Of a stretch of 64,000 nt of DNA, positions 2,516 through 62,938 are shown in pieces. Within the stretch, counting starts at the first letter, position 1, and every line of letters starts with the position of its first letter. The DNA comes from an uncultured Candidatus Saccharimonas sp. (lineage in GTDB: Bacteria; Patescibacteriota; Saccharimonadia; Saccharimonadales; OMJO01). The notes under the pieces were generated by a model that saw only the letters and a program-made list of their open reading frames with translations, was not told the DNA's origin and ran no database searches. The stretch covers positions 173,803-237,802 of the forward strand of contig CALRAM010000001.1 of assembly GCA_943353165.1 (NCBI GenBank), given 5' to 3'. Made by a program: the position numbers and the translations under genes.

Positions 2516-2567
2516 AAACCGCAAAATATTATTATATAAGCAGACAAAATAATAAACACCAGCGCTA

Positions 2568-2596
2568 TTGATGTACAATTCCGTTTAAGCTATACT
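2568..2596 (+). promoter_or_regulatory. Sigma-70-like promoter for the small ORF at 2629
   Basis: TTGATG (2568-2573), 17-nt spacer, TATACT (2591-2596). Confidence 0.35.
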
Positions 2597-2628
2597 GAAA
2601 AAAGATTAGACAAGCGAGTAACGGGTAA

Positions 2629-2823
2629 ATGGCCAAAATTAACTACCAGGATTTGTTAAAACAACCTATGACGCGTAAGCAATTTTTGCGCAATGTAGGC
2701 CTGCTATTTATTGGCATAATTGGCATCAACAACGCCCTGAAAATATTGTCAGCAGACCATTCCAGAAAAGTATCGGACGGTAGCTCGCCGCATGGTTTTG
2801 GTGGCGGCAAATACGGCGCATAA
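2629..2823 (+). CDS. 64-aa protein with Tat-type (RK variant) signal peptide and Gly-rich C-terminus
   Basis: TRKQFLRNVG followed by hydrophobic LLFIGIIGINNALKIL resembles the S/T-R-R-x-F-L-K Tat motif. The predicted mature part is only about 25 aa (..SSPHGFGGGKYGA). It sits directly downstream of tatAC. Confidence 0.45.
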   Translation: MAKINYQDLLKQPMTRKQFLRNVGLLFIGIIGINNALKILSADHSRKVSDGSSPHGFGGGKYGA

Positions 2824-2991
2824 GCATTTTGTATAAAAATATACATAAAATGTCTATACTACGACTGCATAAGCAGTTATAATACAATCAGCTAAAGAGG
2901 GACTGGTATAAGAGTAATGTTGTCAAAAAGCTCATATTTTCGGCTATCCGTGCTGGACACGTCTATTCAAAATGCAAAGGTTACAGACTAA

Positions 2992-3705: not shown

Positions 3706-3726
3706 CGAAAGCTAAGAGGTAAAGAC

Positions 3727-4407: not shown

Positions 4408-4410
4408 CAT

Positions 4411-7400
4411 ATGCAGCAAGACGGAACTATTTATACGGCTAAACCCGCAGATTATACAGAAATTGTTGTCGGTGATGAAAAGCAACCAGAGTTTTATCCC
4501 CGCGTCAAAATTAAGAAATGGGATAATGAAGTCAATCTATCCGTTGGATTAACTAACCCGATTGCTGGATCTAATGTAGTACAAGAGGGCGAACAAATCA
4601 CTTGGTCTAACTCTGATACTGAAGCCCGTTTTTATCCGATTAATGCTTCTGTAATGCCAGCAGCAACAGGTATACGTAGGATAATGAAGAATAAGTTTAT
4701 TCAGCCCTATGAGGCTAGTGCCGAGTACGAGTTTATGCGCCATAGGGCAAATCGACTATTAACAATCATTGACATTGCTACGTACATTACTCCACCGATG
4801 CTTATGCATTTTGATGCCATGCCTACTGGTCGATATACCGAAGTAGAAGATGATGGTTATGCTATAGATTATGATTATGCTGATAAATCGGCATATCATC
4901 CCGATGATATGCTAATGCCAAAAGTGGGAAGGATACCGGCTAACAGGATATATTCTCCTTACACCGCTTCTGCTAACCCTTATTTTGCGGACGAGGGTCT
5001 AGTCAATGTTGATATCCAGTATGGTTTTACTGATGTACCTGGTATTGAAAATGTTTGGTGTGATTCCATTGTTGAAGTTCTAGCAAATCACGGTGTTGAA
5101 GTTATTCGCCCGACCAAGAGAACCAAGTTGTATTTCAAGCACAAAGGGCGGCTAGTCAAGTTTCATAGCGCAGAAAATGCTCGTGGTGTAGTTGCTTGTT
5201 ATATCAATTTGAATTGTATGTACAACAAGGCTTATGATTACTATAAGCCTGGTGTAGAGCACGACGTGCGCGATGAGTATGCTTATGGCTTACAAGTTGC
5301 TTATCCAGAAATAACTATTGATATTGTTAATGAAGTCGTGGGTTTGTTTGCTGAGAAACTATCTCTTCCTATAGACGACACGGAGTATAGTGACGCTGAA
5401 TGGGAATCTATAAGGGCTATAATTCCCAAGCATAAGGATGTTGCTTGGATACGGGAGGCCAAACGACAAGACGCTAACTGGTTTTATACTGTTCCTAGAG
5501 ATGGTTTTGAGTTTGAGTTTGATGTATATGAGAAGCCAGACACAAACATATTTGATCTTTCGATCACTACTAAGGGTTTGGATTTTTATAGACAAGAAGC
5601 CTTAACTCCTGAAGAGATAGAGGAAGGTTTCTCGCGCGACCCTGATGTGGTTGGCAGTTATGCTGTCTATCATTCTGAGATTAAATATAACAACGAGTAT
5701 CAGACTGGTAAAGCTTTTCATATTTATCGCCCAATAGCCAGAGACGCTAACGGAATAGCTTATTTTTGCGATATGGATATTGATATAGAAAATAGCATTA
5801 TGCGAATTACAGTGCCACAAATATTTTTAGACGAAGCCACTTATCCCGTTATCATTGATCCTACCTTTGGTTATGGAAGTGTGGGAGCGAGTGCGACTGG
5901 TTTTGGTAATCAGATTATGGGGACAGTTCAGACTATGCCTGAAGCTGGTTATGTGACCTCTATGACGGCTTATATTTCAACATCCAATAGTTCTGTCGAC
6001 ACATATAATTTTGAGTTTGGACTTTATGATACTTCTGGCAATTACTTGGCTCAGAGCGGCAACACATCAACTACGGCTAATTTGAACTCATGGTCTACTC
6101 TTAATTTAAATTCTGCTTATAATCTACCTTCGGCTTCTTATGTGCTGTCTACGTGGGGTAATATTGTTTCAGGCACTTATTCGTCTCCTTCTACGGGTAT
6201 CATGACTATTGCTTATGATTCTACAGTTGGTAAAACTTCTAAATATGCTTCTGCTGCGTACAGCGCTGATAATTGGCCTTCTACTGTTTCTTTTACAAAT
6301 TGGTCTGATATACAACTTTCTATTTATGCTACGTATACAGTACCAATTGGTTACAAGTGGCCTGTAATGATGGGTAACTCTGCTGCTTTGGCGTCTAGTA
6401 GTGGTGCTAGGTATGCGCCGATGTACGGTGGATCGGCAACGGCCTGGGCAACAAATGCTTCCGCTACGTCTGTCGTTTCAACATCTGATGCATGGTATTC
6501 TGACTTTAGGTTTGATTTAACTACTGCACCTGGTGGTGTTACTGCCAGAACAATGTCTGTTTCTGAAAATATACCAGCAACAATAACTGGTGCAGCAGTA
6601 ACAGCTACTAATTCGACAGATGTAGTATACTTAAATGCTGGAACTAGCCTGTATATTGGAAATGCACCGACTGGTACACCAGCCAGCTCAACTGGTAACA
6701 AATGGCGACTAAATGTAAGCAGTACATATCAGGCTTGGTATTCAACTTCAATCTCAGCCCTGAGTACCACAGCTAATAGGTTTATGGGAGTACAAGATGG
6801 AAAAGGACTTAGTACAACGGCGGCATCTGCTACTTCTACAATGCCTAACGAACCTGGCACAATTAGAAACGCTCGCTGTAAGATCGTAGGTGGCACGCTG
6901 GGTTCAGGCTCTTATACTATCACTTTGGTTAAAGGTGGTATTGATACATCTATTATAATGACGCTAAACAGCGCTACTTCTTTCGCCACCGATACTGATA
7001 CTGTAGCTGTAACTAATAGCAATACACTTTATTGGAAAATTGTACCATCAACCCCAGATGCTGGCGTATGGGTAGCTATATCTTGTGAGTACGAGTCAAC
7101 AACACCAGGGCGTGGAATAATCTTTGGTGGCGTTAGTACCGCTGTGTCTGGTACTACATATTCATCGTCTTTTGATGCCTGGAACGCCACCGAAACGCTT
7201 ATATCCGCTAGGGCAGTTACGCACACAATTATCGCGTTGCGAGCCGATTTATCTGTTGCACCAGGCTCTACCAACACTCGAACGCTAACATTTAGAAAGA
7301 ACGCTGCCAACCAGACACCAGCAATTACAATAACCAGTACAGCAGTAACAGGAAGCTGGTCTGGTAGTCTGGCTGTTGCCACCGATGATTTAATAGATGT

Positions 7401-7524
7401 CCAGCACAGCTCTACTGGTGCTCCAGCTAACTCTAACCTTTTCTGGTCTTATGTATTCACCGCACCAGCAGTTGCAGTTACAGCAACTTACGCCCCTCAA
7501 ATGCTGTTAATGGGTGTTGGGTAG
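4411..7524 (+). CDS. Large (1037 aa) hypothetical protein, phage fibre/receptor-binding-like, with triplicated C-terminal module
   Basis: No signal peptide. The globular N-terminal half includes GKAFHIYRPIARDANG..ATYPVIIDPTFGY. The Ser/Thr/Ala-rich C-terminal half has three ~120-aa modules starting near nt 6502, 6862 and 7234 (DLTTAPGGVTARTMSV vs DLSVAPGSTNTRTLTF). Confidence 0.45.
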   Translation: MQQDGTIYTAKPADYTEIVVGDEKQPEFYPRVKIKKWDNEVNLSVGLTNPIAGSNVVQEGEQITWSNSDTEARFYPINASVMPAATGIRRIMKNKFIQPYEASAEYEFMRHRANRLLTIIDIATYITPPMLMHFDAMPTGRYTEVEDDGYAIDYDYADKSAYHPDDMLMPKVGRIPANRIYSPYTASANPYFADEGLVNVDIQYGFTDVPGIENVWCDSIVEVLANHGVEVIRPTKRTKLYFKHKGRLVKFHSAENARGVVACYINLNCMYNKAYDYYKPGVEHDVRDEYAYGLQVAYPEITIDIVNEVVGLFAEKLSLPIDDTEYSDAEWESIRAIIPKHKDVAWIREAKRQDANWFYTVPRDGFEFEFDVYEKPDTNIFDLSITTKGLDFYRQEALTPEEIEEGFSRDPDVVGSYAVYHSEIKYNNEYQTGKAFHIYRPIARDANGIAYFCDMDIDIENSIMRITVPQIFLDEATYPVIIDPTFGYGSVGASATGFGNQIMGTVQTMPEAGYVTSMTAYISTSNSSVDTYNFEFGLYDTSGNYLAQSGNTSTTANLNSWSTLNLNSAYNLPSASYVLSTWGNIVSGTYSSPSTGIMTIAYDSTVGKTSKYASAAYSADNWPSTVSFTNWSDIQLSIYATYTVPIGYKWPVMMGNSAALASSSGARYAPMYGGSATAWATNASATSVVSTSDAWYSDFRFDLTTAPGGVTARTMSVSENIPATITGAAVTATNSTDVVYLNAGTSLYIGNAPTGTPASSTGNKWRLNVSSTYQAWYSTSISALSTTANRFMGVQDGKGLSTTAASATSTMPNEPGTIRNARCKIVGGTLGSGSYTITLVKGGIDTSIIMTLNSATSFATDTDTVAVTNSNTLYWKIVPSTPDAGVWVAISCEYESTTPGRGIIFGGVSTAVSGTTYSSSFDAWNATETLISARAVTHTIIALRADLSVAPGSTNTRTLTFRKNAANQTPAITITSTAVTGSWSGSLAVATDDLIDVQHSSTGAPANSNLFWSYVFTAPAVAVTATYAPQMLLMGVG

Positions 7525-7562
7525 TTATTGACCAATAGGTCAAGAAGATAAACCATAACTTT

Positions 7563-8471: not shown

Positions 8472-8473
8472 AT

Positions 8474-9040: not shown

Positions 9041-9070
9041 ATGCTTTATTATAGTATTATCTTGAATAGT

Positions 9071-10099: not shown

Positions 10100-10101
10100 T
10101 A

Positions 10102-11208
10102 ATGTTAGGCCTCAAAAAGCTGCAGCAAAACTATGCGACAAGACAAGCTAATATAATTCGATCAAAACTATGTATAAAAATTTTTTATATTTTGGTTCTA
10201 GTTTTTGCCCCATTATTTGGTATGCCCATTGACTCTAGCGCTGCAACCATAACTAGCCGTTCTATTACCTTATCTACGTCTGTTGCAAGTGCTGTAGGAG
10301 TAAACTACACCCTCACTAGCGCAGCACTCCCCACTGTTGCCAGTATAGTAAAATCTGTTAATGTCGAGTTTTGCACCTCTCCGAATGGCGTATGCGTTGC
10401 CCCCGCTGGTTTTAGTTCTGCAATCTCTACACTTGCGTCTCAACCTAGCGGTTTAGGCGATGCAACTGGCTGGACCGTAAATACTGCATCTGCAAACCAA
10501 CTACGAGTAACAAACTCCACCAACACAACTACGCCAGCAGGAGCAGTCAGCATCGCATGGGCGGGTGTACAAAACCCTAGCACCACAAACACAACTTTTT
10601 ATGGCATCATTACTACCTATTCAGATGCCTCATGGACTACAGTTTTGGACAGCGGTACAGTTGCGCTTAGCACATCAACAGCAATACAGGTTTCTTTGAC
10701 AGTAGCAGAGATATTGACCTTTTGTACTGGCACCAGTATAACCGGCACAAACTGTGCGACTATAGCAGGCAATACAGTGTCGCTGGGCAACGGTTCTCCG
10801 ACAACAACATCCAGCGGGACGTCTGTCATGGCGATATCTACTAATGCCCCTACAGGGTACAGCGTTACTATAAATGGATCCACCCTGACTAGCGGTGTTG
10901 ACACCATTACTGCATTGGCTGCTCAGACTGCCAGTACGGCAGGCAATAGTCAGTTTGGTATCAACCTAAAAGCCAACACGACTCCGTCGGTCGGTTCAAA
11001 TGTTTCTGGGACTGGCTCTGGAACAGCCACTGCCAACTATGGTACTGCCGACCAATTCCGTTTCGTTACAGGCGATAGCGTGGCTTCGGCATTGATTCCT
11101 ACGAATTCCAATACTTTTACTGTCAGTTACATTGGAAACATTGCTGGTATAACAGCACCAGGAATATACGCCACAAGCCTAACATTCGTTGCGACTGCAA
11201 ATTTCTAA
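10102..11208 (+). CDS. Secreted Thr/Ser/Ala-rich surface protein, WxL-like, paralog 2
   Basis: Signal peptide (..LFGMPIDSSAA). Carries the same GDATGWTVNT motif and ends ..GIYATSLTFVATANF. Starts 2 nt after the stop of paralog 1. Confidence 0.5.
   Translation: MLGLKKLQQNYATRQANIIRSKLCIKIFYILVLVFAPLFGMPIDSSAATITSRSITLSTSVASAVGVNYTLTSAALPTVASIVKSVNVEFCTSPNGVCVAPAGFSSAISTLASQPSGLGDATGWTVNTASANQLRVTNSTNTTTPAGAVSIAWAGVQNPSTTNTTFYGIITTYSDASWTTVLDSGTVALSTSTAIQVSLTVAEILTFCTGTSITGTNCATIAGNTVSLGNGSPTTTSSGTSVMAISTNAPTGYSVTINGSTLTSGVDTITALAAQTASTAGNSQFGINLKANTTPSVGSNVSGTGSGTATANYGTADQFRFVTGDSVASALIPTNSNTFTVSYIGNIAGITAPGIYATSLTFVATANF
10864..11092 (+). repeat. 229-bp near-identical segment, copy B
   Basis: See copy A. 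The segment encodes VTINGSTLTSGVDTITALAAQTAST(V/A)GNSQFGINLKANTTPSVGSNVSGTGSGTATANYGTADQFRFVTGDSVAS. Confidence 0.95.
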
Positions 11209-11227
11209 TATGATACTATTGACTCAT

Positions 11228-12205
11228 ATGAAGAGGGTTAGCGCTAAAACTTTGTTGGCTTTGATAGTTATAATTTCTATCACTATTAATCACGCTTATT
11301 CTGCAAAAGCTGCCACTGACAATGCGCAAGGCCTTCAGATATCTCCAGTTCTAGTAGATATATTAGCTGACCCCGGCAAAACATACTCTTTTAAAATATC
11401 AATCCTAAATGTAACTACCGGAGATTTGCTGTTCAAACCAATTATCAATGATTTTCAGTCCAAAAATGATAGCGGAGAACCAGACATAATCCTAGACGGG
11501 ACAGTACCCAGTACAACCTTGAAAGGGTGGATAAGCCCCATACCCGACATAACCGTAAAAGCCAAAAAATCAGTAGAAGTAAATGTCAGTATCACAGTGC
11601 CTCTAAATGCTGAACCAGGAGGACATTATGGTGTCGTACGGTTTAGTGGAATAGCCCCAGCTCTGGATAAAAGCGGTGTTTCTCTGGCTGCCAGCGCCGG
11701 GCCTCTAGTGCTAGTTAGAGTCAGTGGAGCTGTAAAAGAAAGTTTAGTTGTCAAAGATTTTTACACTGTTCGTGGTAAAAACCGAAGTGTATGGTTCGAG
11801 TCTAGTCCCGTGACTTTCGTAGAAAAGATTACTAATACTGGAAATACGCACTTAAAACCAGTTGGCAACCTGGTGATAACCAATATGTTCGGGGACACCA
11901 CTGCATCGTTAAAAATTAATGATGAAAAAGGCAATGTTTTGCCATCTGGTACTAGAAATTTCGAACAAATACTTCAATCAAAAAGAATGTTTGGTAGATA
12001 CACAGCCAAGTTGGCGTTGGCTTATGGTAGCACTGGGCAAGCATTAACCGGAACTATTACTTTTTGGGTTATTCCGTATAAAATTATAATATTATCATTG
12101 GCTACATTGATAATATTGTTTATGGCCATAAAAAATCTAATAAGAATGTATAACCGCGCGGTTATAAAAAAGGCTCTTGGTGAAACGAAAAAAAAGACAA
12201 AATAA
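11228..12205 (+). CDS. DUF916/DUF3324-like cell-surface protein, second copy
   Basis: The track ORF starts at 11189. The Met at 11228 gives the signal peptide MKRVSAKTLLALIVIISITINHAYSA. Contains GLQISPVLVDILADPGKTYSFKISILN and ITVPLNAEPGGHYGVVRF. C-terminal TM helix plus a basic tail. Confidence 0.55.
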   Translation: MKRVSAKTLLALIVIISITINHAYSAKAATDNAQGLQISPVLVDILADPGKTYSFKISILNVTTGDLLFKPIINDFQSKNDSGEPDIILDGTVPSTTLKGWISPIPDITVKAKKSVEVNVSITVPLNAEPGGHYGVVRFSGIAPALDKSGVSLAASAGPLVLVRVSGAVKESLVVKDFYTVRGKNRSVWFESSPVTFVEKITNTGNTHLKPVGNLVITNMFGDTTASLKINDEKGNVLPSGTRNFEQILQSKRMFGRYTAKLALAYGSTGQALTGTITFWVIPYKIIILSLATLIILFMAIKNLIRMYNRAVIKKALGETKKKTK

Positions 12206-13229
12206 ATTAAGGTTTTTTTCTTTGAAAAATCTAGGCAAATTACTAGGTATTGCAGACAAAAGGCACACAGGAAAAATCATAAAAAACAAGCACAGCTCTT
12301 TTGGAGTTTTGTTTTTATTGATGCTAACTCTATTGCCCGTAATGAATTTCAGCAACCTGGTACTAAGCACGCAAACCAATAGCGGAAATGTTTCTGTAAC
12401 CTTATTAGTGCCTGGACCTTCGCCTACTACGCCAGCAACTATCCTGTCCCCGACAAATGGAAATACAAATACGGCAAATATTAGCGTTTCTGGTACCTGC
12501 GGACCAAATTTGTTAGTAAAAATATTCAATAACTCATCATTTGTTGGTTCTGTTTTTTGTCAACTCAATGGTACTTTTAGTATAAACATTACGCTGATCG
12601 CAGGCGTCAATAATATTACCGCTTTAAACTATGACAACCTGAACCAACCCGGACCAGCGTCTCCGAATGTATCTGTAAACCTGATCAGTGGGGCAGGGCA
12701 ACAATTAAATCCAAAAATGATTATTTTGGCCGACTCTGACTACCGTCAAATCAACCCAAACACACTGACAAATTGGAATTTTTCATTAAAAAACGGACAG
12801 TCACCATACAATGCTTTCATTGACTGGGGTGACGGCAAGAACCAGAAAATGGTATTGAACAAGGCAGGGGATTTTGACTTTAGCCATAGCTACTCAGAAC
12901 CTGGAAAATACAACATCAGTTTGACTATTACCGATTATCTGGGCAACCAAGCGCGTATCCAACTAAATGTTACAGTAAACGGCATACCCGTAGCTCCAAT
13001 TGGCCCGACCGAGCAGCCAAAACAAGCATGCGATAACACAAATAATCAACTTAGTAGTTTTGGGCTTTTTAGATGCAAAATACAGTCCTCTTTGGGTCAA
13101 TATTGGATAGTTTTGTATTGGTTGATGATGCTGGTGTTGGGTATATTCTGGCTAGCCGCCATAAAAAGGCGCAAAAGGGAAGACGAAAAGTCATCAAAGC
13201 GTCGCCCAATCCATACGGCAAGAGCCTGA
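12177..13229 (+). CDS. PKD/Ig-like domain surface protein with C-terminal TM anchor
   Basis: TTG/GTG start. Basic N-region plus a hydrophobic helix, then an Ig-like segment. PKD signature FIDWGDGKNQ...HSYSEPGKYNISLTITDYLGN. C-terminal TM helix followed by KRRKREDEK. Confidence 0.6.
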   Translation: MVKRKKRQNKLRFFSLKNLGKLLGIADKRHTGKIIKNKHSSFGVLFLLMLTLLPVMNFSNLVLSTQTNSGNVSVTLLVPGPSPTTPATILSPTNGNTNTANISVSGTCGPNLLVKIFNNSSFVGSVFCQLNGTFSINITLIAGVNNITALNYDNLNQPGPASPNVSVNLISGAGQQLNPKMIILADSDYRQINPNTLTNWNFSLKNGQSPYNAFIDWGDGKNQKMVLNKAGDFDFSHSYSEPGKYNISLTITDYLGNQARIQLNVTVNGIPVAPIGPTEQPKQACDNTNNQLSSFGLFRCKIQSSLGQYWIVLYWLMMLVLGIFWLAAIKRRKREDEKSSKRRPIHTARA

Positions 13230-21863: not shown

Positions 21864-23024
21864 ATGACAGAAAAAGAAGAGCCCAACAAACTACACCCCA
21901 ACGACCCGGCTATCAGTATGATTCGCCACAAAATAGCTATGTTACATTCCAAAGAACCGAACGCTTCGGACGAAATGGATGTAGCAAAAGATCATGCCAC
22001 AAGATCTAATCACCAGCAATTCATGTACGACCTCAGCACTTCTGGGAAATCTCTGGCAGAAATTCAAACCGCCTGGCATAACTACTACATTGGACTGCCC
22101 GATGACCAAAAGCACAAAGTATGGCAAGAGTTCTATGAAGCCAACGATCATAACAAAAACAAACACGCTAGCCCCAAAGTTCATATCTCAAAAGATCATG
22201 CGGTTGTTTTAGACACAGATAACCATCCTATTTCATCTAATCCAAAAACCATTACCCAGCTAAAACAAGACACCCTAAAACTTGTGTCAAAAAAAAGGCG
22301 TCCTACCGCCAAACAACATTTTAAGTCCTTGCTGTTTGGGCTGAGCGCTGGAATGATTACGGTATTCATACTATTATTTGGTTTTTTTAACGATAGGTTT
22401 ATCGCTCCTTTCATATCACCCAGCCGAAATGTCAGTTCTACTCCTATACTAATTGACGCCAACAGCACTCTAGCTGTTGGGCCAGAACCAAAATTAATTA
22501 TTCCAAAAATAAACATCGAACTGCCCGTAAATTTTAAAGAAACCTCAACAAATGAAAAAGCAGTACAAGCTGCTCTAAAAACAGGGGTCGTACACTACCC
22601 AACCACATCGTACCCAGGACAAATAGGCAATGGTGCTATTTTTGGGCATTCCAGCGGTAACATCCTAAACAGCGGTCAATTCAAGTTTGCGTTTTCGCTA
22701 CTCAGAAAATTAGAAATAGGCGATACTTTTATGATCCAAAAAGACAGCAAACCGTATTTTTACAAGATCTACAAAAAGTATGTTGTTCCTCCTACCGATG
22801 TATCTGTTCTAAATACCCAAGACAAACCGGCTACTTTTACACTTATAACATGCGACCCACCAGGCCTCAGCACTAGTAGATTGATAATTGTAGGTGAGCA
22901 GGTATCGCCAAACCCTATAAAAAACACAGAGAGTACCGCTGCGAAATCCACCCTGAAACCAGATATACTGCCTAGCAATTCAGAAAGCCTGTGGCAGAGA
23001 CTCTGGTCCTGGATATCTGGCTAA
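21864..23024 (+). CDS. Sortase-family transpeptidase with ~150-aa cytoplasmic N-terminal extension
   Basis: TM helix (LLFGLSAGMITVFILLFGFF). Catalytic-type motifs IFGHSSG (His) and TLITCDPPG (TLxTC Cys). Confidence 0.75.
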   Translation: MTEKEEPNKLHPNDPAISMIRHKIAMLHSKEPNASDEMDVAKDHATRSNHQQFMYDLSTSGKSLAEIQTAWHNYYIGLPDDQKHKVWQEFYEANDHNKNKHASPKVHISKDHAVVLDTDNHPISSNPKTITQLKQDTLKLVSKKRRPTAKQHFKSLLFGLSAGMITVFILLFGFFNDRFIAPFISPSRNVSSTPILIDANSTLAVGPEPKLIIPKINIELPVNFKETSTNEKAVQAALKTGVVHYPTTSYPGQIGNGAIFGHSSGNILNSGQFKFAFSLLRKLEIGDTFMIQKDSKPYFYKIYKKYVVPPTDVSVLNTQDKPATFTLITCDPPGLSTSRLIIVGEQVSPNPIKNTESTAAKSTLKPDILPSNSESLWQRLWSWISG

Positions 23025-23037
23025 ATAATTTAAACCC

Positions 23038-24534
23038 TTAGTTTGCTAGTTTGCTGGACTGTTCGGCTGTAAGTCGAAGTTCGGTTCTCTGCAAAGCTAT
23101 CTGAGTGGACTTTGACAATGACGGACCAATCGTAAACAAGGCTTTATAGTCACGATCAAAAAACGGGGTAGTGTCTGAATTGGTACTATTTAGTGTCTGA
23201 ACATTTGTGCCATCAAAGTCAAAAACCTTTATTTTTGACGCATCAACAACTGTTAGTCGGTGACCATCCATCCAGTTAGCTTTTGAGGCGACAGGCAAAG
23301 GTATTTTGGTATCGTAGCGTAACTGCTTTTTGTTTTCTATATCATAGACAGAGAACAAACCTCCAGTTTGAACGCTAATAAACCTAGTGTTAGTAGAAAA
23401 AGACACGAATCTAGGGTCGTCTTGCTTTAGTAGGGCAACGGCTTCTGGAAGTTTTCCGGGGTTAGACTTTATAAGTTCTAGTGGGTTTTTGTAAACATAT
23501 ACTTTTCCGCCAGCATTACTACCGACAACAGCGTAGAAAGCGTTATCAAAACTCGCCATATCCAACAAGTAAATATCGCTTTTAGTCACCTCCCGAACCT
23601 TGTAATCTTCGGAGCCTATGCGTAGACGAACTGTAGAGTTGCCGACAGTTGCCCCTGAGTCCGTAACGTACAAAATTTGGTCAGCACCATATGGCTTGAA
23701 CGACAAAAGTCCACTAATCAGTGGTTTGATAGTTTTGGATTTTATATCTGCAGTAGACAGAGTTAAAGCTACTTTGTCCTGCAAATAATACTGATCAAAT
23801 TTTTTATCGCGAAAACTAAATAAAGCATTGGGGGTAGAAAAATAAGTGGAAAGATTTTGGCTTGTCGCCGGGTTGTCACGGCTTATCAAAATATACTCAA
23901 CTCCACCAGTGTAATTGTGTTGAACAATAAAATGCTTATTGTCGGCAGACCATTCTACTGTGGACAATCTGTGTTCGCCGGCGGCCGAATTAAATAATCC
24001 TGCGGCCAAATTAAAGACTGTTCGGTCGTTGTTATTGGCGTTCATGTCAAACTGGTCATATGCAGTCAAACTGCCGGGCTGTTGAATTATAATCCATCGC
24101 TTGTCTGGACTCTGAGTAGACATAGTGTAACCTGGTAAATATACCTGTAAATCTTTGGTCACCAGTTCCGTTGGAAACATAAAAGGGTAATCGTACCGAA
24201 GTATTTTTGAACCTTCTAGCACAAACTGGTTTTGCCAGGTTCTGTAGCCATTTCGCTTCAACTCCAAGTTGTATTTACCTTCAGGTATCACCATTCTATC
24301 GGCAGTTTGACCTTTTTTCTTGCCATTTAAATATATGTCCGAGCTATCCAAGTGGGAATCAACAAAAACTAGACCATTTTGAATAACTTTTCCAGTTTTT
24401 CGGTTTAAATCAAAGCCCATCACTGTCAAAGCCAATATGCCGGTGCCAATTGAAAGACATATGGCAACTAGTGCGTAACCTACGAATAGGCGAATAGTGT
24501 GTGATCGTCGCTTGTGTGGGTCTAGAAAATCCAT
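23038..24534 (-). CDS. Membrane-anchored PEGA-domain protein with beta-propeller-like C-terminal region
   Basis: N-terminal TM helix. PEGA signature SDIYLNGKKKGQTADRMVIPEGKYNLELKRNGYRTW. The long beta-rich remainder is unclassified. Confidence 0.6.
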   Translation of the reverse strand: MDFLDPHKRRSHTIRLFVGYALVAICLSIGTGILALTVMGFDLNRKTGKVIQNGLVFVDSHLDSSDIYLNGKKKGQTADRMVIPEGKYNLELKRNGYRTWQNQFVLEGSKILRYDYPFMFPTELVTKDLQVYLPGYTMSTQSPDKRWIIIQQPGSLTAYDQFDMNANNNDRTVFNLAAGLFNSAAGEHRLSTVEWSADNKHFIVQHNYTGGVEYILISRDNPATSQNLSTYFSTPNALFSFRDKKFDQYYLQDKVALTLSTADIKSKTIKPLISGLLSFKPYGADQILYVTDSGATVGNSTVRLRIGSEDYKVREVTKSDIYLLDMASFDNAFYAVVGSNAGGKVYVYKNPLELIKSNPGKLPEAVALLKQDDPRFVSFSTNTRFISVQTGGLFSVYDIENKKQLRYDTKIPLPVASKANWMDGHRLTVVDASKIKVFDFDGTNVQTLNSTNSDTTPFFDRDYKALFTIGPSLSKSTQIALQRTELRLTAEQSSKLAN

Positions 24535-30025: not shown

Positions 30026-30760
30026 TTAGTAAGGCAATTGGGTGTTTGAAGTAGTATTTGAAGTTATGTTTTTTGTTTTTCGCTTGCGCCGCCTATCTGC
30101 CTCGTTTGTTCCGCCCCATATTCCTTGTATATTGTCGTTATTTAATGCAAACTCTTCGCATTGAACTCTAACTTCACAGTTACTGCATATCACTGCTACG
30201 GCATTAGATATCCATCTAGATGGGGGGAAGAAAAGATTTACATCCATACCTTTACACGCAGCTTTGCCGACAAACTCAGAAATCTGCGGGCCTTTCATCT
30301 GATAATCTCGTTTGTTAGAGCTATTAGGACCAAAATTAATTTCATTTAAGTGATTCTCTGTTCTGTATCGCTTGTCTTCACGACTAATAGCAATGTTGCA
30401 AAAATTTAGCAAATCTTTTTGGGGCAATAACAAATTATAGGAGCCTGCATCTGTCTGTTGTTGCACTATACGCATTAACAAGTTAATGTCTTTTACGTCA
30501 TTTATGGTATTCAATTTTAGCCATTTTCCGTCTAGAGAATCTAGAGATTTTAGCTTTTCTAATAGATTTTCTATTCCCTCAAAATCTATGCGGTTTTCTT
30601 CGGAATGATTTATTTCAAGCGGTTCTAGTAGATCATCCGACACGATAACCAGCTCCATGCCTTCATCCAATTCATCGGTCAAACCAAAATGAACTGGAGC
30701 ATCTTCTAGGTTTTCGATAATATCCAAATGGTACGAATTAATTGTATTTTCTGATGACAT
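30026..30760 (-). CDS. WhiB-like (Wbl) Fe-S transcription factor domain fused to a ~170-aa acidic N-terminal extension
   Basis: The C-terminal ~70 aa carry four Cys (C..x23..CSNCEVRVQC), then the GIWGG turn motif and a basic tail RRRKRKTK. That is the Wbl signature order. Confidence 0.7.
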   Translation of the reverse strand: MSSENTINSYHLDIIENLEDAPVHFGLTDELDEGMELVIVSDDLLEPLEINHSEENRIDFEGIENLLEKLKSLDSLDGKWLKLNTINDVKDINLLMRIVQQQTDAGSYNLLLPQKDLLNFCNIAISREDKRYRTENHLNEINFGPNSSNKRDYQMKGPQISEFVGKAACKGMDVNLFFPPSRWISNAVAVICSNCEVRVQCEEFALNNDNIQGIWGGTNEADRRRKRKTKNITSNTTSNTQLPY

Positions 30761-41455: not shown

Positions 41456-41621
41456 GTTTCAAAAACGCTATTATTTGGATATTTTTGGCATTAAATAAAA
41501 AAAACCTCCAGAGGGTGAGACCCGCCTGTGGCGGGTTGCAAGGCCGGAGCCACGACGGTGGTGAGGTGTGGCTAGCCAAATTCTCAGCAGAAAATTATGG
41601 GTAGCTGGGCACATGTCTATA

Positions 41622-42026
41622 CCAAACAAAAAGAGTCACAAGAGGGGGTGGGCACCGCTTGTGACTCTTTTTGCCCACGAACTAGTCACGGGCTAAAAAC
41701 ACCCTTCAAGCCCACCCAGCGAAGCATCAATCACCTGAAAAATACAGTGTTGTGCCTCCGTCTTGCGACGGTAATCTTTTGGACTCGCTCTATTTAGGCA
41801 CTCACAAAAGTGAGTAGCCACCACTAGTTCCGAAGAACTAATGGGGTGTCTTAAAGGGGTTAGTTTGTCTTAGAACGCCGCCCTGTCAAGCAGGGTAGCT
41901 AGCAAAGTGGAGGGTAACAACTCAGTAGCACGCTCTAAAACAATCTAACAATAATGTTCTCTGTTTAGAGAGAACTGCTAGAATGGGGGTATAAGGTACA
42001 ATAAATTCCATATAGGAACTTACGGA
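41622..42026 (-). ncRNA. Candidate ~400-nt structured RNA of unrecognised class
   Basis: Near-consensus promoter upstream. On the minus strand there is a 10-bp stem with a C(UUCG)G tetraloop (41821-44), a GCAA GNRA hairpin (41758-71), further hairpins at 41797-819, 41881-95 and 41956-75, and a 3' terminator at 41632-68. Several pairs are G-U only on the minus strand (for example 41824/41841 and the 41673-93 stem). No ORF is present. Confidence 0.55.
41632..41672. terminator. Bidirectional intrinsic terminator (11-bp stem)
   Basis: AGAGTCACAAG (41632-42) pairs with CTTGTGACTCT (41658-68). It is flanked by an A-run on the left and a T-run on the right, so it has a U-tract on either strand. Confidence 0.75.
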
Positions 42027-42031
42027 TTGCT

Positions 42032-42060
42032 ATAATAGCAAATATATTACATTATGTCAA
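42032..42060 (-). promoter_or_regulatory. Sigma-70-like promoter driving the minus-strand RNA
   Basis: On the minus strand: TTGACA (42060-42055), 17-nt spacer, TATTAT (42037-42032). Confidence 0.55.
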
Positions 42061-42079
42061 TACCAAACAAGGATTATCA

Positions 42080-46593: not shown

Positions 46594-46992
46594 ACCCAAA
46601 AAAGTACTATTATCAATAGCGAACAAAATACGAACACTTTAGTGCAGGTAAAGTAGCATAGTAGGCAGTTTAATATAGCGTAATTAAACCAAAGAACGTG
46701 GCCGGAAAGAGAAGACAAAAAAATAAAATAAAAATAAATAGCAACTAGGTTAGAAGAATATAAAAATCACAATAGAACACAACACCGACATATACATACT
46801 ACGTCGTACAATGCATATTTTACGACACGCATATAAAGCATAACCTTGATTACCTATAACCCTATCACTAGGGGACAACGTCGTCTAAATGCAATAAGTT
46901 TGGACTGTACGAATAACACTAACTACACTGCGCCTGACTTGTATAGATATAGTGAAATCCCACGTATGGTTGGAAATGGTTTCTCCCGCACA

Positions 46993-47015
46993 TTATCCCC
47001 ACATAGTTATCCACA
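46993..47015 (+). promoter_or_regulatory. Tandem DnaA-box-like 9-mers
   Basis: TTATCCCCA (46993-47001) and TTATCCACA (47007-47015). The latter is identical to the classical TTATCCACA consensus. Both have the same orientation, with starts 14 nt apart. Confidence 0.45.
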
Positions 47016-47352
47016 GCTAGCGTGAAAACTTTTGCTTTTTCACAAATACATACTGTTGTAAGTTTTTAGTCCCTACTACCCTCTTTTAAGGGTATTTGAC
47101 AATTCCCTACTATGCAGTCATACTATGTTTTTTTCTTGGCTAAAGAGCTGTATGTGTTTATGAACATTTTACGAACATGCAAGGGGAGAGTGGGGTGCTT
47201 AATACTTTTTGTCAGCAAAGCATCTAGCACTATCTTTCATTAAGAAGTTAACAGATTTTTTAATTTCACAGAACCGTTCATTATAAACATAAAGCATATA
47301 ATATATCCCCTAGCCTAATGAGGGAAGCTATCAGACTCTTTACTTCCCTACT

Positions 47353-57684: not shown

Positions 57685-58191
57685 CTAAATCTTGCGACTA
57701 TCGTAGGACCAATGCATCACGGCCTGGCGTTGCCGTCTGCGACAAGTCATATCTCCGGGCATGCAAGCTTTTTTTAGCTGCGTAGTATGCCTTGTCATAG
57801 CAACCCATCGTTTTATCTGACGTTGGTCTTCTGTTGGAATTCGTCTACCTACAAAATATCTACAGTACCACTGGAACCAACCCCGTGGATCATCAGGGTA
57901 AATCCAGCCCTTTTCTTGCCAAACTTTTAGCGGCTGGCTTGCCATTACTTCAAAATAGTTATATTTGGCATCTGGGCCATGGTCGCTTAGTCTAGCATTT
58001 TCAAACCAATCTTTTGGGTACTCGCTAACGCAGTCGTTTAAATAATGGCCGCCAAAAACACCAAGTTCTAGCATTTGCTTTGGCGTTAGCTGTGGCTCAA
58101 AATCTTTCTGAAAATCTGCGCCATAACGGGCCACTATTTCGTAGTTATAGTTCTTTTGTATGTCATCGTTTACTGTTATTTTTTTAGGCAT
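57685..58191 (-). CDS. Conserved hypothetical protein (DPRGWFQWYCRY..GRR motif family)
   Basis: 168 aa, soluble. I recognise the motif but cannot name its family. It overlaps the NYN gene by 8 nt, suggesting translational coupling. Confidence 0.45.
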   Translation of the reverse strand: MPKKITVNDDIQKNYNYEIVARYGADFQKDFEPQLTPKQMLELGVFGGHYLNDCVSEYPKDWFENARLSDHGPDAKYNYFEVMASQPLKVWQEKGWIYPDDPRGWFQWYCRYFVGRRIPTEDQRQIKRWVAMTRHTTQLKKACMPGDMTCRRRQRQAVMHWSYDSRKI

Positions 58192-58756
58192 TTTTTTTAA
58201 ATGGTCGCCGGATACTTCTGTAGGAAAGTTGGCGCTTTAGTTGATCTATACGTATGATGCTATCTTCAAATCTTTTTAACAATCCTGAATATTGCCAGTT
58301 AGGAGCCATGATATAGCCCAATTTTCCTATTTCCTGCAAGTACTCTGCCAAGCAAAGGAAGTCTCCATCGCCTGAAACTATGATAGCTTTGTCATAATCT
58401 TTTAGCTCTTTCATAGCCCATAGCACCAGTTCGGCATCAATGTTGCCCTTTATTGGCTTTTTTTCTTCAGTTTTGATGGAGTCTGCTGTTGTTTCTGTAT
58501 TTTTTTGGGGTTCTGCCTGCACTCTGGTCATATCTGAAGTTGGCTTTAGTACTACCAGATAACCCAGCTCGTGCATATGAACGTACATATCCTCGAATTC
58601 TGGCACGTGACCGATGAACATATACGCCTTTGTCACTCCGTATTGTTTTTCCAGATATTGCCTAAATTTACGCCAGTCTAGCTTCCACCCCATTTTTTGG
58701 ACCCCCAGATTCAAATTCTGGCTATCTATAAATGCATAGGTATTTGGTTTCTTCAT
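58184..58756 (-). CDS. NYN-domain (LabA/DUF88-like) predicted ribonuclease
   Basis: AFIDSQNL (first acidic motif), GNIDAELV and IIVSGDGDF, all characteristic of NYN/PIN-like nucleases. Confidence 0.7.
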   Translation of the reverse strand: MKKPNTYAFIDSQNLNLGVQKMGWKLDWRKFRQYLEKQYGVTKAYMFIGHVPEFEDMYVHMHELGYLVVLKPTSDMTRVQAEPQKNTETTADSIKTEEKKPIKGNIDAELVLWAMKELKDYDKAIIVSGDGDFLCLAEYLQEIGKLGYIMAPNWQYSGLLKRFEDSIIRIDQLKRQLSYRSIRRPFKKNA

Positions 58757-59307: not shown

Positions 59308-60648
59308 TCACAGATTTACTATGTCAACACGTTTCTGCTTGGTCGTATCTCTGTCCCTGACGGTTACGGTATTGTCGTCCATAGTTTGGAAATCTATAGT
59401 TACACATTTAGGAGTTCCTATTTCGTCTTGGCGTCTATATCTTTTGCCAATATTTCCATTATCGTCCCACATTACCCCGTTACTGTACGATGGATTATCT
59501 TTTAGCAATTCATATACTTCGCGAGCTTTGGCTACCAATTCTGGCTTGTTTTTTAGTAGTGGAGAAACTGCTATTTTGTATGGAGCCAGTTTAGGGTCAA
59601 GCTTTAGAACAACTCTTTTTTCACCATTTATTTCCTCTACATGGTAGGCGGCGGTTAAGACAGCCATCAGTATTCGTCCGACTCCAACTGATGATTCTAT
59701 AACAAAAGGCGTAAATCTTTCCTTTGTTTCATCGTCGTAATAGCTGAGATCTTTGCCGCTGGCTTTTGAGTGGTTGCTTAGGTCAAAATCTGTACGGTCA
59801 TGTGTTCCCCACAGCTCCTTGAAGCCTTGAGGAAACCTGAAGTATATATCGTGAGCAGCCGCAGCATAATGCGCCCGTTCATCTTTGTCGTGCTCGTGCC
59901 ACTGCAAATCGGATTCATCTATACCTAGCCTATTTGTCAGAAATTCCCAGGCAAACTTGCGCCATTGCTCGTATGATTTCTTTTGAGCTTGCGGTTTTAT
60001 AAAATATTGCATTTCCATTTGTTCTAATTCTCGTACACGAAAAATAAAATCACGGGGACTAATCTCGTTTCTAAAAGTTTTTCCTATCTGAGCAATCCCA
60101 AACGGTAATTTAGCTCGCATAGTTTCTCTTACATTTTCGTAATTAGTAAACATAGGGCCGGCAGTTTCGGGACGCAAATAAGCCACAGATGAAGAATCCT
60201 CTACAGGACCTACCCAGGTTTTCATCATCATATTATAAAATCGTGGTGGTGTCAGGGTTTTTTTGCCACAAGCAGGACATACTTTGTCCTTTAATAATTT
60301 TGTCAATTCTTTGATATCGTTGGTATCTTTTCCAGCCAAATGGTCTGCTCTGTGTCTAGCTCCGCAATTTTTGCAATCAACCAATGGATCGGTAAATCCA
60401 GCAACATGCCCGCTGGCTTCCCATAGCTTTGGGTTTTGAATTATGGCGCTATCTAGGCCGAATATATTATCATTTTCTCTGACCATGGCATTCCACCATT
60501 CAGCCTTGATGTTATTTACCAGTTCTACGCCCAATGGGCCGTAGTCATAGAAGCCCGCCAATCCTCCATAAATTTCGCTAGACTGAAACACGAATCCCCT
60601 ACGCTTGCAAAGAGATACTATGCCTTCTAGTGTTACGTTTTTAGTCAT
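59308..60648 (-). CDS. glyQS: Glycine--tRNA ligase (alpha2-type)
   Basis: Class II motifs: YLRPETAGPMF and FRNEISPRDFIFRVREL. A C-terminal anticodon-binding domain is present. Confidence 0.92.
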   Translation of the reverse strand: MTKNVTLEGIVSLCKRRGFVFQSSEIYGGLAGFYDYGPLGVELVNNIKAEWWNAMVRENDNIFGLDSAIIQNPKLWEASGHVAGFTDPLVDCKNCGARHRADHLAGKDTNDIKELTKLLKDKVCPACGKKTLTPPRFYNMMMKTWVGPVEDSSSVAYLRPETAGPMFTNYENVRETMRAKLPFGIAQIGKTFRNEISPRDFIFRVRELEQMEMQYFIKPQAQKKSYEQWRKFAWEFLTNRLGIDESDLQWHEHDKDERAHYAAAAHDIYFRFPQGFKELWGTHDRTDFDLSNHSKASGKDLSYYDDETKERFTPFVIESSVGVGRILMAVLTAAYHVEEINGEKRVVLKLDPKLAPYKIAVSPLLKNKPELVAKAREVYELLKDNPSYSNGVMWDDNGNIGKRYRRQDEIGTPKCVTIDFQTMDDNTVTVRDRDTTKQKRVDIVNL

Positions 60649-60749
60649 AATGTTACAAATTATAACGGATTTATCGACATTGTTCTAACTCTAGTGCTTT
60701 ATGGTACGGCTATAATTTCTGGCAGGTTTTGCAAAAACTTTTGTTTCTA

Positions 60750-62180
60750 CTATTCTAGTTCTTCTATGTGCCTGTATAATCTAGCGATTTCGTCTGGGTT
60801 TTCTCCATAGGAATCATTTAGGTAGACTTCCCTGTCACCACCTTCAAAATTATATTTCACCTCATTCCAGTTTACGGAGCGAACTCTAATAGATCTTTTT
60901 GGAACTACATTTCGCAAGCATCTGATAATTTCGCCGCGTAGTTCGGCACGGCCTTTTGGCGGATTTTTTACTAAATGAGGGGCTAGGCTAATGGCGTCTA
61001 GTGGATCATCGAAATGCCCCAATTTTCGTAGTTTTATGGCTATACCGTTATAGTTTAGGTCTCCCCACATTCTGTCGATTGCGCGGGCATGGACATAATC
61101 AGTCGTTGAACCCGTTCGGGATTTTGCTGATTTTATGATGTGATCCTTGGCTATCCAATCAACCTTGTTTTTCAAAAATTCCTTATCCTTGGGGCTGTCA
61201 ACTAAATGTTCGGCTGCAGCGTACCATTCGTTAGCCATTATTTTCTCGTCTTCAGGGACGGATACCGTTTCTATGAACTCCAGTGCCAGCTCGGCTAATG
61301 CTAGCTGCACCTCGGCCGAGCGAATCTTTACCCCACTATCTAGCTCGACCAGCTTGGACAGTTTATTGTCTTTTGCCACACTCACTGTTACATTTGCAGG
61401 CCTGTATAGTTTTAAGTCATTCATGTTTACACCATGTTCCATCATTCGCAGAACCAACGAAGTCGACGCAATCTTGTAGGCGGATGACCATGGAATCATA
61501 TTTGGATCTCCAGAAACTATATGTAGTCTTCGAAAATTGTTATTACTAGAAAAACTTTCGTCACGTGTATTGATATGCGGCTTGCTGATACTGCTTGTAG
61601 TCGTAGAACTGATGGGTGTTTTTACGTGTTGAGCTTTTTGAGCTACAAAATATTTACCGGTTCTGCACTCCACATGTCCAGCTCCTGATAAAATCATTCT
61701 AGTGGATAGGTGCGTAATCAACCCGTTCCAATGATCAGAATAACCATCCCAACTTTCTGATTTTTCTGGATTTATGCGTTCTAATGTTTGATAATTCTCG
61801 TGGACACCCCAGCTGATTTTTGGATCATCTCCAATAACTCTGTTGTTGAGCCTAAAATGTTGTTGTTCCAATTTACCGCCATGCAAATCTACGATTTCGG
61901 ACATTATGATTTCCCCAGCGATAACAGCCGCAACTGTCTCTCTAATGGTCTGACACTCTGGTGTCGCATACTCTGGATGATTGCCAGAATCTACATATAT
62001 CCTTGACCCATTCTGGGAAAACTGTTGAATAGTGCCCAGTTTTTTAGTCATTCTGCGACCCTCAAACAATTCGTAGATTGGTTGCTCGTACGGATTAATC
62101 TCTAGCTCTGATTCAATGCCGTAAATTCTACGTACAGGTTCAATCTCTGGACAATCAGAATAAAAATTCAACGAGGACAT
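60750..62180 (-). CDS. Pup-ligase/deamidase-family protein (PafA/Dop homolog)
   Basis: RRIYGIESELE and NGSRIYVDSGNHPEYATPEC(Q) match the N-terminal carboxylate-amine-ligase core of PafA/Dop. The 476-aa length is typical of the family. Confidence 0.7.
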   Translation of the reverse strand: MSSLNFYSDCPEIEPVRRIYGIESELEINPYEQPIYELFEGRRMTKKLGTIQQFSQNGSRIYVDSGNHPEYATPECQTIRETVAAVIAGEIIMSEIVDLHGGKLEQQHFRLNNRVIGDDPKISWGVHENYQTLERINPEKSESWDGYSDHWNGLITHLSTRMILSGAGHVECRTGKYFVAQKAQHVKTPISSTTTSSISKPHINTRDESFSSNNNFRRLHIVSGDPNMIPWSSAYKIASTSLVLRMMEHGVNMNDLKLYRPANVTVSVAKDNKLSKLVELDSGVKIRSAEVQLALAELALEFIETVSVPEDEKIMANEWYAAAEHLVDSPKDKEFLKNKVDWIAKDHIIKSAKSRTGSTTDYVHARAIDRMWGDLNYNGIAIKLRKLGHFDDPLDAISLAPHLVKNPPKGRAELRGEIIRCLRNVVPKRSIRVRSVNWNEVKYNFEGGDREVYLNDSYGENPDEIARLYRHIEELE

Positions 62181-62248
62181 AAAACAATCCTTTTTCTTAG
62201 ATATTGCAAAATTATAGCAACATAACCCAGAAAATGTTACTGCTAATG

Positions 62249-62938
62249 CTAGCCGTATGACAAATTAATGCTGTTTTTGGCCAGTACCGCTACTGGTAAT
62301 ACTAACTTTTTTATTCCTGAAATTTTTGCTAAAATGGCTGGGTTTTTAGTCCTAAATGCAAGTCTCATGAGTTTTATATGACTTACGTTAAACTGACCCT
62401 CTGTATTGGGAACGAACAACATATTATCATAATCAAAACTATACTTTTGGTCTGCTTTCAGCTGGTTTCCGCCTAGATCTACAGACAAGTTCGGGCTGTG
62501 CCCTCCTAGCCTCAACAGTTGGAAATCAAACCAAAACTCTAGTACATCACTATTAATATTTAGATTATCTAGCCCCCCGAAAGCACCTTCAAGCAAATCA
62601 AAATAATCGTCCTCTACTGCATCTTCTGTAATTTTATTTATTCTTTTTATAAAATCATAGCCCAGCATTGTGCGCTGGATATCTTTTACTATGTTTCCAT
62701 AATGTTTTTGGAGCCTGGAAGATATTAGGGTTTTGATTTCTCCCCTACCCGGCAAAAAAGTTATCTGGCAGATACTAAAAAGCTCAATACCACCGGCAAG
62801 TTTTGACAGTGGTCTGCGTACACCCTTTGCAATTACCCTAATTTTTCCTTGACCACGAGTTAACATTGTCACAATTCTATCTGCTTCTTTGAAGTCTGTT
62901 CTGTAAAGGACTATAGCTGTCGTGACTATAGCTCTCAT
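62249..62938 (-). CDS. recO: DNA repair protein RecO
   Basis: OB-fold N-terminus (AIVLYRTDFKEADRIVTMLTRGQGKIRVIAKGVRR) and a helical C-domain. Confidence 0.8.
   Translation of the reverse strand: MRAIVTTAIVLYRTDFKEADRIVTMLTRGQGKIRVIAKGVRRPLSKLAGGIELFSICQITFLPGRGEIKTLISSRLQKHYGNIVKDIQRTMLGYDFIKRINKITEDAVEDDYFDLLEGAFGGLDNLNINSDVLEFWFDFQLLRLGGHSPNLSVDLGGNQLKADQKYSFDYDNMLFVPNTEGQFNVSHIKLMRLAFRTKNPAILAKISGIKKLVLPVAVLAKNSINLSYG

Follow-up and report, generated by a model that had tools for sequence, protein, structure and literature searches.

Positions 60750 to 62180 of the window, by which we mean the whole 64,000-nucleotide stretch of DNA analysed here (contig CALRAM010000001.1, from an uncultured Candidatus Saccharimonas sp.), are occupied on the minus strand by one uninterrupted open reading frame (ORF) with an ATG start, encoding a protein of 476 amino acids (aa). 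It lies between glyQS (59308..60648; NF003211, 607.7 bits) and recO (62249..62938; TIGR00613). An earlier sequence-only reading of the window had placed a PafA/Dop homolog at this position, and the ORF, its neighbours and the two motifs quoted for it, VRRIYGIESELE (aa 17-27) and NGSRIYVDSGNHPEYATPEC (aa 57-76), were all confirmed. The Pfam model Pup_ligase (PF03136) matched with E=5e-76 and 256.9 bits (cutoff 25), residues 49-441 aligning with profile positions 67-440/441. Pfam, equivalog scores, predicted fold and phylogeny together assigned the protein to a Saccharibacteria-specific clade of the PafA/Dop family.

The protein scored 222.3 bits with the PafA equivalog model TIGR03686 (cutoff 551.3) and 187.8 bits with the Dop equivalog model TIGR03688 (cutoff 492.3), far under both cutoffs, the PafA score exceeding the Dop score by about 35 bits; the clade members at two related loci, L010 and L018, scored similarly with TIGR03686, at about 219 bits. 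The protein shares on average 39.5% identity with its own clade, 28% with PafA and 26% with Dop. Neighbour joining of 60 family members with 200 bootstrap replicates supported the syntenic Saccharibacteria clade at 91%, PafA at 76% and Dop at 71%, and the Saccharibacteria clade joined PafA or Dop in 0% of the replicates. In this phylogeny, a check proposed in the sequence-only reading, the protein fell in neither the PafA nor the Dop cluster. The window protein belongs to the PafA/Dop family and is an equivalog of neither PafA nor Dop. The best explanation of these comparisons is that the Saccharibacteria proteins form a third, separate clade of the family, with a probable PafA-type architecture. 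One homolog from the broader clade, P0135, is labelled by NCBI 'proteasome accessory factor PafA2 family protein [Candidatus Saccharimonadales]'. PafA2 is an older name of Dop, and since the window protein is not Dop-like the label would probably mislead for its clade.

Sequence matches in PDB were equal for Dop (5LRT/4B0R) and PafA (4B0T/4BJR), at about 2.5e-31. An AlphaFold2 model computed from the 14-sequence clade alignment (pLDDT 83.7, pTM 0.90) predicted a two-domain fold, with a beta-sheet cradle like that of glutamine synthetase (GS) and a small C-terminal domain. In Foldseek alignments of 470-490 columns, the TM scores were 0.79-0.81 with Dop and 0.74-0.80 with PafA. With a TM of about 0.80 to both, fold comparison failed to discriminate a ligase from a depupylase. 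The next-best folds, YbdK/GCS2 (TM only about 0.46) and glutamine synthetases, did not exceed 0.48; assignment to a different carboxylate-amine ligase family, the outcome that would have spoken against the sequence-only reading, was not what was found.

For the residue analysis, discriminating positions were taken from Table 1 of PMC7947786 and contacts to Pup and nucleotide from PMC8599861; the numbering of the window protein equals that of Corynebacterium glutamicum PafA over residues 42-76, and residue counts refer to the 14-member clade alignment. The GhExE ATP/Mg-binding motif, as defined in PMC7947786, was found as G21-I-E23-S-E25 (62106..62120, minus strand), and G21, E23 and E25 are invariant. 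The active-site strand NGSRIYVDSGNHPEYATPEC (61953..62012, minus strand), aligned residue by residue to C. glutamicum PafA, includes R60 and Y62, which are nucleotide contacts, the catalytic Asp D64, S65 and G66; R60, Y62, D64, H68 and E70 are kept in the window protein, as are H127-E128, R206-D207-E208, R217-R218, R411, R415 and W438. Every residue of this catalytic and nucleotide-binding set is conserved in at least 12 of the 14 members, most in all of them. The C-terminal small domain (about aa 405-476; 60753..60968, minus strand) carries the motif PPxGRAxLRG with R411 and R415, both invariant in the clade alignment, as is W438, which aligns with W453 in the nucleotide pocket of Dop. The clade has kept 41 of the 67 positions that are invariant in both PafA and Dop, positions that should take in the Pup groove plus the catalytic residues, and this retention argues for purifying selection on activity. 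Judged from the model and the alignment, the fold and catalytic set appear intact and under long-term purifying selection.

The Dop loop, whose presence the sequence-only reading had proposed to check, is absent: the spacing from GhExE to NGxRxY is 31 residues, compared with 38-39 in PafA and 77-81 in Dop, with residue 46 of the window protein aligned to Dop residue 76. Next to the catalytic Asp, the window protein has D-S-G-N-H, the PafA-type D-x-G-x-H with S65 as the extra residue followed by G66, and not the D-H-A-H of Dop; the extra residue is V in 9 of the 14 members and Gly66 is found in 13. F54, A72 and T73 are in the PafA state, and V63 and P74 in the Dop state. P74 is uninformative, because it also occurs in 4 of 9 PafA sequences. 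In PafA, the alpha-loop forms a target-binding helix, and its conformation is the critical determinant of ligase versus hydrolase activity. The corresponding region of the window protein (aa 185-200, HVKTPISSTTTSSISK; 61581..61628, minus strand) was analysed by alignment, signature scoring and DSSP on the model. At the nine positions of the PafA signature (H188, W190, E191, G192, S194, S195, A196, R199, S200) it has H, K, T, P, S, S, T, I and S, a match at 4/9, and it has 0/9 of the Dop alpha-loop residues (Y/F, E, V, E, G, L, E, L, K). R199, present in 9/9 of the PafA set, is variable in the Saccharibacteria clade, and the loop was modelled mostly as coil, with pLDDT 64-85.

The alpha-loop bears directly on whether the protein could instead be a hydrolase, that is, a loop-less Dop-like amidase or isopeptidase acting on gamma-glutamyl amide or isopeptide bonds, with a possible role in processing Pup-lysine conjugates or other gamma-glutamyl compounds from actinobacterial hosts. 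Dop catalysis does not need the Dop loop, and it is the alpha-loop conformation that decides between ligase and hydrolase (PMC7947786). A loop that lacks the PafA signature and is mostly coil would be in line with this, as would the Dop state of V63 and P74 and the marginally first rank of Dop structures in Foldseek. However, not one Dop alpha-loop residue is present, the neighbours of the catalytic Asp are PafA-type, the PafA model outscores the Dop model and P74 carries no information, and we regard a hydrolase as rather improbable.

Changes were found at positions expected to face the substrate. In the PafA complex, R201 forms a salt bridge to Pup's C-terminal residue (PMC8599861); in the window it is replaced by Lys (K200), and the same is true of 13 of the 14 clade members, so that the charge is kept and the change is systematic. 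Three further substitutions are fixed or nearly so at positions otherwise invariant in PafA and Dop, namely N118R (14/14), T417G (14/14) and R185K (11/14). These data suggest a PafA-type architecture with conserved chemistry, but with a substrate-facing surface that has apparently been systematically re-tuned. A further possibility is a functional return towards GCS2/YbdK-like relatives, giving a small-molecule gamma-glutamyl (carboxylate)-amine ligase that uses no protein tag. The family is part of the GS/GCS superfamily of carboxylate-amine ligases, the searches described below gave no tag gene, and residues of the substrate pocket are altered. But the full PafA/Dop-specific architecture is present, including the C-terminal domain (TM 0.80 versus 0.46 for YbdK), many surface positions that PafA and Dop share are retained (41 of 67), and no adjoining metabolic genes hint at a pathway; this explanation seems to us distinctly improbable.

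Partners of the ligase were searched for in the window and in related loci. No ORF ending in GGQ or GGE occurs anywhere in the 64-kb window, a motif search for Pup and UBact, covering the endings GGQ/GGE, [RK][ST]G[QE] and G[QE], gave no plausible Pup-like ORF there, a Pup profile search of the window gave nothing, and a motif-free screen for small acidic ORFs in intergenic DNA with a terminal E or Q returned one implausible 30-aa ORF only. Pfam annotation of the window's long ORFs revealed housekeeping and surface-protein genes only, with no ARC/Mpa-type AAA ATPase and no proteasome subunit. The observation, already made in the sequence-only reading, that Pup, Mpa and proteasome genes are missing nearby could be extended to 15 related, ligase-bearing Saccharibacteria loci with a non-redundant length of about 244 kb, where tblastn with Patescibacteria ARC, 20S and Pup queries (including the ARC of L028 and the 20S of L049; positive controls worked) found nothing apart from weak P-loop matches. 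A second PafA/Dop paralog, Dop included, was not found in any Saccharibacteria locus. The 120 best homologs of a Patescibacteria Pup query included no Saccharibacteria-labelled Pup, few of these matches carrying organism names.

Across all loci compared, the Pup query and profile detected Pup only in Bifidobacteriaceae and Azambacteria, plus one weak ORF at L047. This small ORF (L047 9646..9858, uncultured bacterium) lies upstream of a 611-aa ligase homolog and ends in ...NSDEFNRQARQEGGE, with a run of Gly residues before that; it has the look of a divergent tag of the Pup or UBact kind, the Pup profile matching it at only E=2.9. The Azambacteria locus L028 (2413..11305) has four consecutive PafA/Dop paralogs, a clear Pup (...YVQRGGQ) and an ARC/Mpa ATPase that carries proteasomal OB domains; in the Patescibacteria AH-259-L07 locus L049 (99..4675), two 20S subunits are flanked by a Dop-like and a PafA-like gene. 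The paralogs of both loci are all under the NCBI PafA and Dop cutoffs. In these canonical Patescibacteria modules, the partners are thus within a few kb of the ligase-family genes. In Bifidobacteriaceae loci, Pup is directly upstream of the ligase, and in Bifidobacterium L023 ARC is also within a few kb.

These searches bear on ordinary pupylation, in which a canonical Pup, and perhaps ARC/Mpa, would be encoded elsewhere in the genome and be ligated by a divergent PafA, as in the proteasome-less Corynebacterium and Bifidobacterium. In its favour, the protein has a PafA-type architecture with an intact active site, canonical Pup systems occur in other Patescibacteria, proteasome-less pupylation is established in C. 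glutamicum, and only about 76 kb of the genome was inspected. But Pup, ARC and 20S are missing from about 244 kb at 15 loci when canonical systems have them within 10 kb, the Saccharibacteria loci have no Dop paralog, and residues invariant in PafA and Dop are replaced, including the contact to the Pup C-terminus; the lack of a Saccharibacteria-labelled Pup among the 120 best homologs adds weakly to this, given the few named matches. We consider ordinary pupylation unlikely, if still a serious candidate.

The identical protein was found on many metagenome contigs and in the metagenome-assembled genome (MAG) GCA_964805395.1, and its context was the same every time. There are only a few close relatives, one at 61% identity and two at 39%, and an exhaustive HMMER search added a graded series of homologs at 36-43%. 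Among the GTDB species representatives, 'Candidatus Saccharibacteria' or Saccharimonadales MAGs account for all four of the nearest relatives with a resolved genome. A conserved block, pyrG ... L27 ... xseA-xseB ... hypothetical protein-response regulator-recO-[slot]-ligase-[slot]-glyQS-...NYN-GH1-mraZ, was mapped in the window, L007/8, L010, L012, L013, L015, L076/77 and L078, at 34-62% protein identity, and the ligase keeps its fixed place in at least 9 loci over this range. In L075, recO is retained upstream of the ligase and a flavodoxin gene lies downstream, and the more distant Saccharibacteria homologs (L018, L056, L081) are located amid unrelated housekeeping genes. The GC content of the ligase gene equals that of the surrounding genome. 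Fixed synteny over 34-62% identity, together with the GC match, shows vertical chromosomal inheritance in one Saccharibacteria lineage. The description of the gene as 'actinobacterial-type' in the sequence-only reading, with its implication of recent transfer, was therefore not supported: the protein belongs to a clade of its own (91% bootstrap) and is only 28% and 26% identical to PafA and Dop, and recent transfer from Actinobacteria was rejected by phylogeny, identity levels, native GC content and fixed position alike.

The distribution of the ligase among Saccharibacteria is patchy. L080, from a saccharibacterium of the same metagenome series, has the identical block with neither the ligase nor a remnant of it. 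In one Saccharibacteria MAG (CAZPVS010000001.1), the ligase homolog at L040 (9914..11064) is split into ORFs of 124 aa and 243 aa, which suggests a pseudogene or an assembly error and fits patchy retention.

Cultivated Saccharibacteria are epibionts of Actinobacteria, as stated in PMC10633639, and because Actinobacteria have Pup the ligase might exploit host pupylation, either by using host-derived Pup or by acting on host proteins. A ligase without its own Pup at the examined loci would suit such a role, and so would the patchy distribution, with the same synteny but no ligase in L080. However, the N-terminus has neither a signal peptide nor a transmembrane segment and there is no link to secretion genes, the neighbourhood is a housekeeping one with a long vertical history, and the Pup-contacting Arg is changed. 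We consider exploitation of host pupylation very unlikely.

In L009, L010 and L012, a Clp/Hsp100-type double-AAA+ ATPase is encoded on the same strand as the ligase, 57-59 bp upstream of it. It is about 787 aa long (L010 7524..9941, L012 7466..9943, L080 8001..10370, L079 8001..10409) and is absent from the window. It scored far under the ClpB, ClpA and ClpV equivalog cutoffs, its first 280 or so residues have no Pfam match and contain hydrophobic stretches in L012, and no ClpP-docking loop of the IGF/LGF type was seen by eye; it may be a lineage-specific, possibly membrane-associated unfoldase. The adjacency would allow the ligase and this Saccharibacteria-wide ATPase to form a tag-and-unfold module analogous to PafA-Mpa. 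But homologs of the ATPase (hundreds, at 55-60% identity, across Saccharibacteria) far outnumber those of the ligase, L080 has recO-ATPase-...-glyQS without the ligase, the ATPase of L079 is in an unrelated context, and in the other loci with a readable upstream region (the window, L007/8, L013/L015, L075, L076/77 and L078) the ligase is retained with no adjacent ATPase. A joint module is very improbable on these grounds, and the ATPase was downgraded as a dedicated partner. Since it is Saccharibacteria-wide, occupies the same slot in L080 and is elsewhere in L079, the adjacency is most simply explained as ancestral gene order.

Two kinds of small ORF also occupy the slots beside the ligase in relatives. 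A very acidic 72-aa ORF ending in ...HDTDDDSSE lies between the ligase and glyQS (L010 11499..11717, the same as L011 3010..3228), and an ORF of about 105 aa lies between recO and the ligase (L013 9564..9881 and L015 674..1000, 62% identical to each other). Neither has a Pfam or PADLOC match. They are possibly accessory factors or tags.

Taking the evidence together, the explanation we tentatively favour, short of an even chance, is that the protein may be an active stand-alone gamma-glutamyl-amine ligase with a non-canonical, unlinked tag or substrate. Such a cytoplasmic enzyme would bind ATP/Mg and phosphorylate a glutamate gamma-carboxylate, as PafA does, and the acyl group would then be passed to an amine, which would most probably be that of a protein lysine. 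In place of a recognisable linked Pup, the donor of the glutamate would be either a small protein or peptide, non-canonical and unlinked, or the C-terminus of a protein; the clade changes (R201K, N118R, T417G, R185K and the unconserved alpha-loop) would reflect an altered donor/target pair; and the downstream step would be non-proteasomal, either regulatory or feeding a non-proteasomal unfoldase or protease. The broader proposal that the clade constitutes a third functional class of PafA/Dop enzymes without canonical Pup, conjugating an unrecognised endogenous tag or, more radically, using or processing host Pup or pupylated proteins, is doubtful, though worth keeping in view.

Several points weigh against the favoured explanation. 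An alpha-loop without the PafA signature, and mostly coil in the model, means that the direction of the reaction is not fixed by the data. The clade's deep branching comes from neighbour joining with 60 sequences. The searches yielded no candidate tag, and the 72-aa and ~105-aa ORFs were rejected as tags, each being limited to one sub-lineage with no counterpart in the window. The window and L001 together amount to only about 76 kb of this genome. Mycobacterial pafA is several genes away from pup, and a canonical Pup may likewise lie elsewhere here.

The spacers on either side of the ligase gene contain no ORF. In both the ligase-glyQS spacer (60649..60749, minus strand, 101 bp) and the recO-ligase spacer (62181..62248, minus strand, 68 bp), inspection of the sequence and its translations found all three coding-strand frames closed, in agreement with the statement in the sequence-only reading that no small ORF ending in GGQ or GGE lies there. 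The 68-bp spacer has the top promoter-like site of the region in a consensus scan, GTAACA-18-TATAAT with an upstream TG (extended -10) at 62240..62211; the count of such sites across the region was not above that in shuffles, so the match is suggestive at most. The same spacer also carries an AAAGGA Shine-Dalgarno-like element. A promoter-like site of its own is compatible with, and only suggestive of, independent transcription of the ligase gene. Against the defence models of PADLOC-DB 2.0, the ligase had no match at E<=0.001, nor had the 72-aa and ~105-aa ORFs of the related loci, and membership of the ligase in a defence system was rejected.

Other features of the window were also recorded. 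At 57685..58756 (minus strand), a 190-aa NYN-domain protein gene overlaps by 8 nt a 168-aa ORF that matches no family; most related loci likewise have the NYN gene downstream of glyQS, L001-L006 have the 168-aa ORF as well, and the NYN protein has weak PADLOC matches (NYN, E=4.7e-10; HEC-09, E=3.4e-05). At 30026..30760 (minus strand), a 244-aa protein has a WhiB domain (Pfam E=2.5e-16) at its C-terminal aa 165-224 only, and its N-terminal 160 aa have no family match; the sequence-only reading had cited it, too, as 'actinobacterial-type'. Among papers naming both WhiB and Saccharibacteria, none appeared from its title or abstract to describe a Saccharibacteria WhiB protein. Nine co-directional ORFs, mostly without a Pfam match, run from 2992 to 13229 (plus strand) and include a 1037-aa protein (4411..7524), an Fn3-like protein and a PKD-domain protein. 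Further along, at 21864..24534, are a MacB/FtsX ABC pair, a sortase and a PEGA-domain protein, and with them the run looks like a cell-surface or secreted-protein cluster typical of epibionts. Four intergenic regions are unusually long for a compact genome: 34028..34822 (795 nt), 46594..47352 (759 nt), 41456..42079 (624 nt) and 2516..2991 (476 nt). None of them had an Rfam match at gathering thresholds, and the first three, scanned also at E<=0.01, gave only the known nearby tRNA-Glu.

No paper mentioning both Saccharibacteria and pupylation was found in the literature searched, the one paper containing both PafA and Saccharibacteria had no bearing on the subject, and the gene is recorded by automatic annotation only. 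What is new is a coherent, vertically inherited Saccharibacteria clade of PafA-type proteins that lacks a linked partner and has fixed changes of its own at positions otherwise invariant; we present it as a solid lead rather than as a demonstrated system. Descriptions of pupylation group Pup, PafA and Dop together with an ARC/Mpa unfoldase and, as a rule, a proteasome. In the present case, a PafA-type enzyme predicted to be catalytically intact is kept, with no linked partner, in reduced genomes that shed dispensable genes. Because the ligase appears intact and long inherited without a linked partner, it may point either to a new tag or substrate for the ligase chemistry or to an unlinked, minimal pupylation in Patescibacteria. 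If an unrecognised endogenous tag does exist, it would represent a new bacterial ubiquitin-like pathway in ultra-small epibionts, and the life of cultivated Saccharibacteria on Pup-bearing Actinobacteria adds an angle of host interaction. R201K, N118R, T417G and R185K, together with the alpha-loop, offer concrete handles on specificity.

Compared with PafA (TIGR03686; PDB 4B0T, 4BJR), the window protein has the same fold (TM 0.75-0.80), GhExE motif, catalytic Asp64, and nucleotide and phosphate residues, the same lack of a Dop loop, the D-x-G-x-H with the extra residue and Gly66, a similar length, the C-terminal domain and the equivalents of F54, A72, T73, H188, S194, S195 and S200. It differs from PafA in its identity of about 28%, its score of 222 bits against a cutoff of 551 and its separate clade, in missing W190, E191, G192, A196 and R199 of the target-binding alpha-loop, in the replacement of R201 by Lys and of N118, T417 and R185, and in having no Pup, Dop, ARC or 20S gene nearby. 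With Dop (TIGR03688; PDB 4B0R, 7OXY) it shares the fold (TM about 0.80), the common catalytic residues, and V63 and P74, but not the Dop loop of about 40 residues, the D-H-A-H or the Dop alpha-loop residues, and it scores 188 bits against a cutoff of 492 at about 26% identity.

Single-copy or sporadic PafA/Dop homologs are on record from Planctomycetes, NC10, Armatimonadetes, Verrucomicrobia and others in a survey (PMC7947786) whose list of phyla does not include Saccharibacteria/Patescibacteria. The Planctomycetes homologs are likewise divergent (about 30% identical), single-copy and in neither the PafA nor the Dop cluster, but they align partially with the Dop loop (PMC7947786), whereas the window protein has no loop and its clade is separate in the tree. 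The Azambacteria and AH-259-L07 systems (L028, L049) share the superphylum and the enzyme family, but have their partners and paralogs within a few kb, whereas the Saccharibacteria clade has one gene and no partners at its loci. C. glutamicum pupylates without a 20S proteasome, ARC there disassembling pupylated ferritin. It and the Bifidobacteriaceae provide a precedent for PafA without 20S, but they still encode Pup, Dop and ARC and, unlike in Saccharibacteria, Pup is beside the ligase in the Bifidobacteriaceae loci, joined by ARC in Bifidobacterium L023. UBact, a Pup-like tag attributed to Lehmann et al. 2017, reportedly occurs in several Gram-negative and candidate phyla, its genes being said to adjoin those for the ligase, Mpa and the proteasome. 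Nothing comparable adjoins the Saccharibacteria ligases, but the likeness lies in the principle that PafA-family ligases can pair with tags diverging from actinobacterial Pup.

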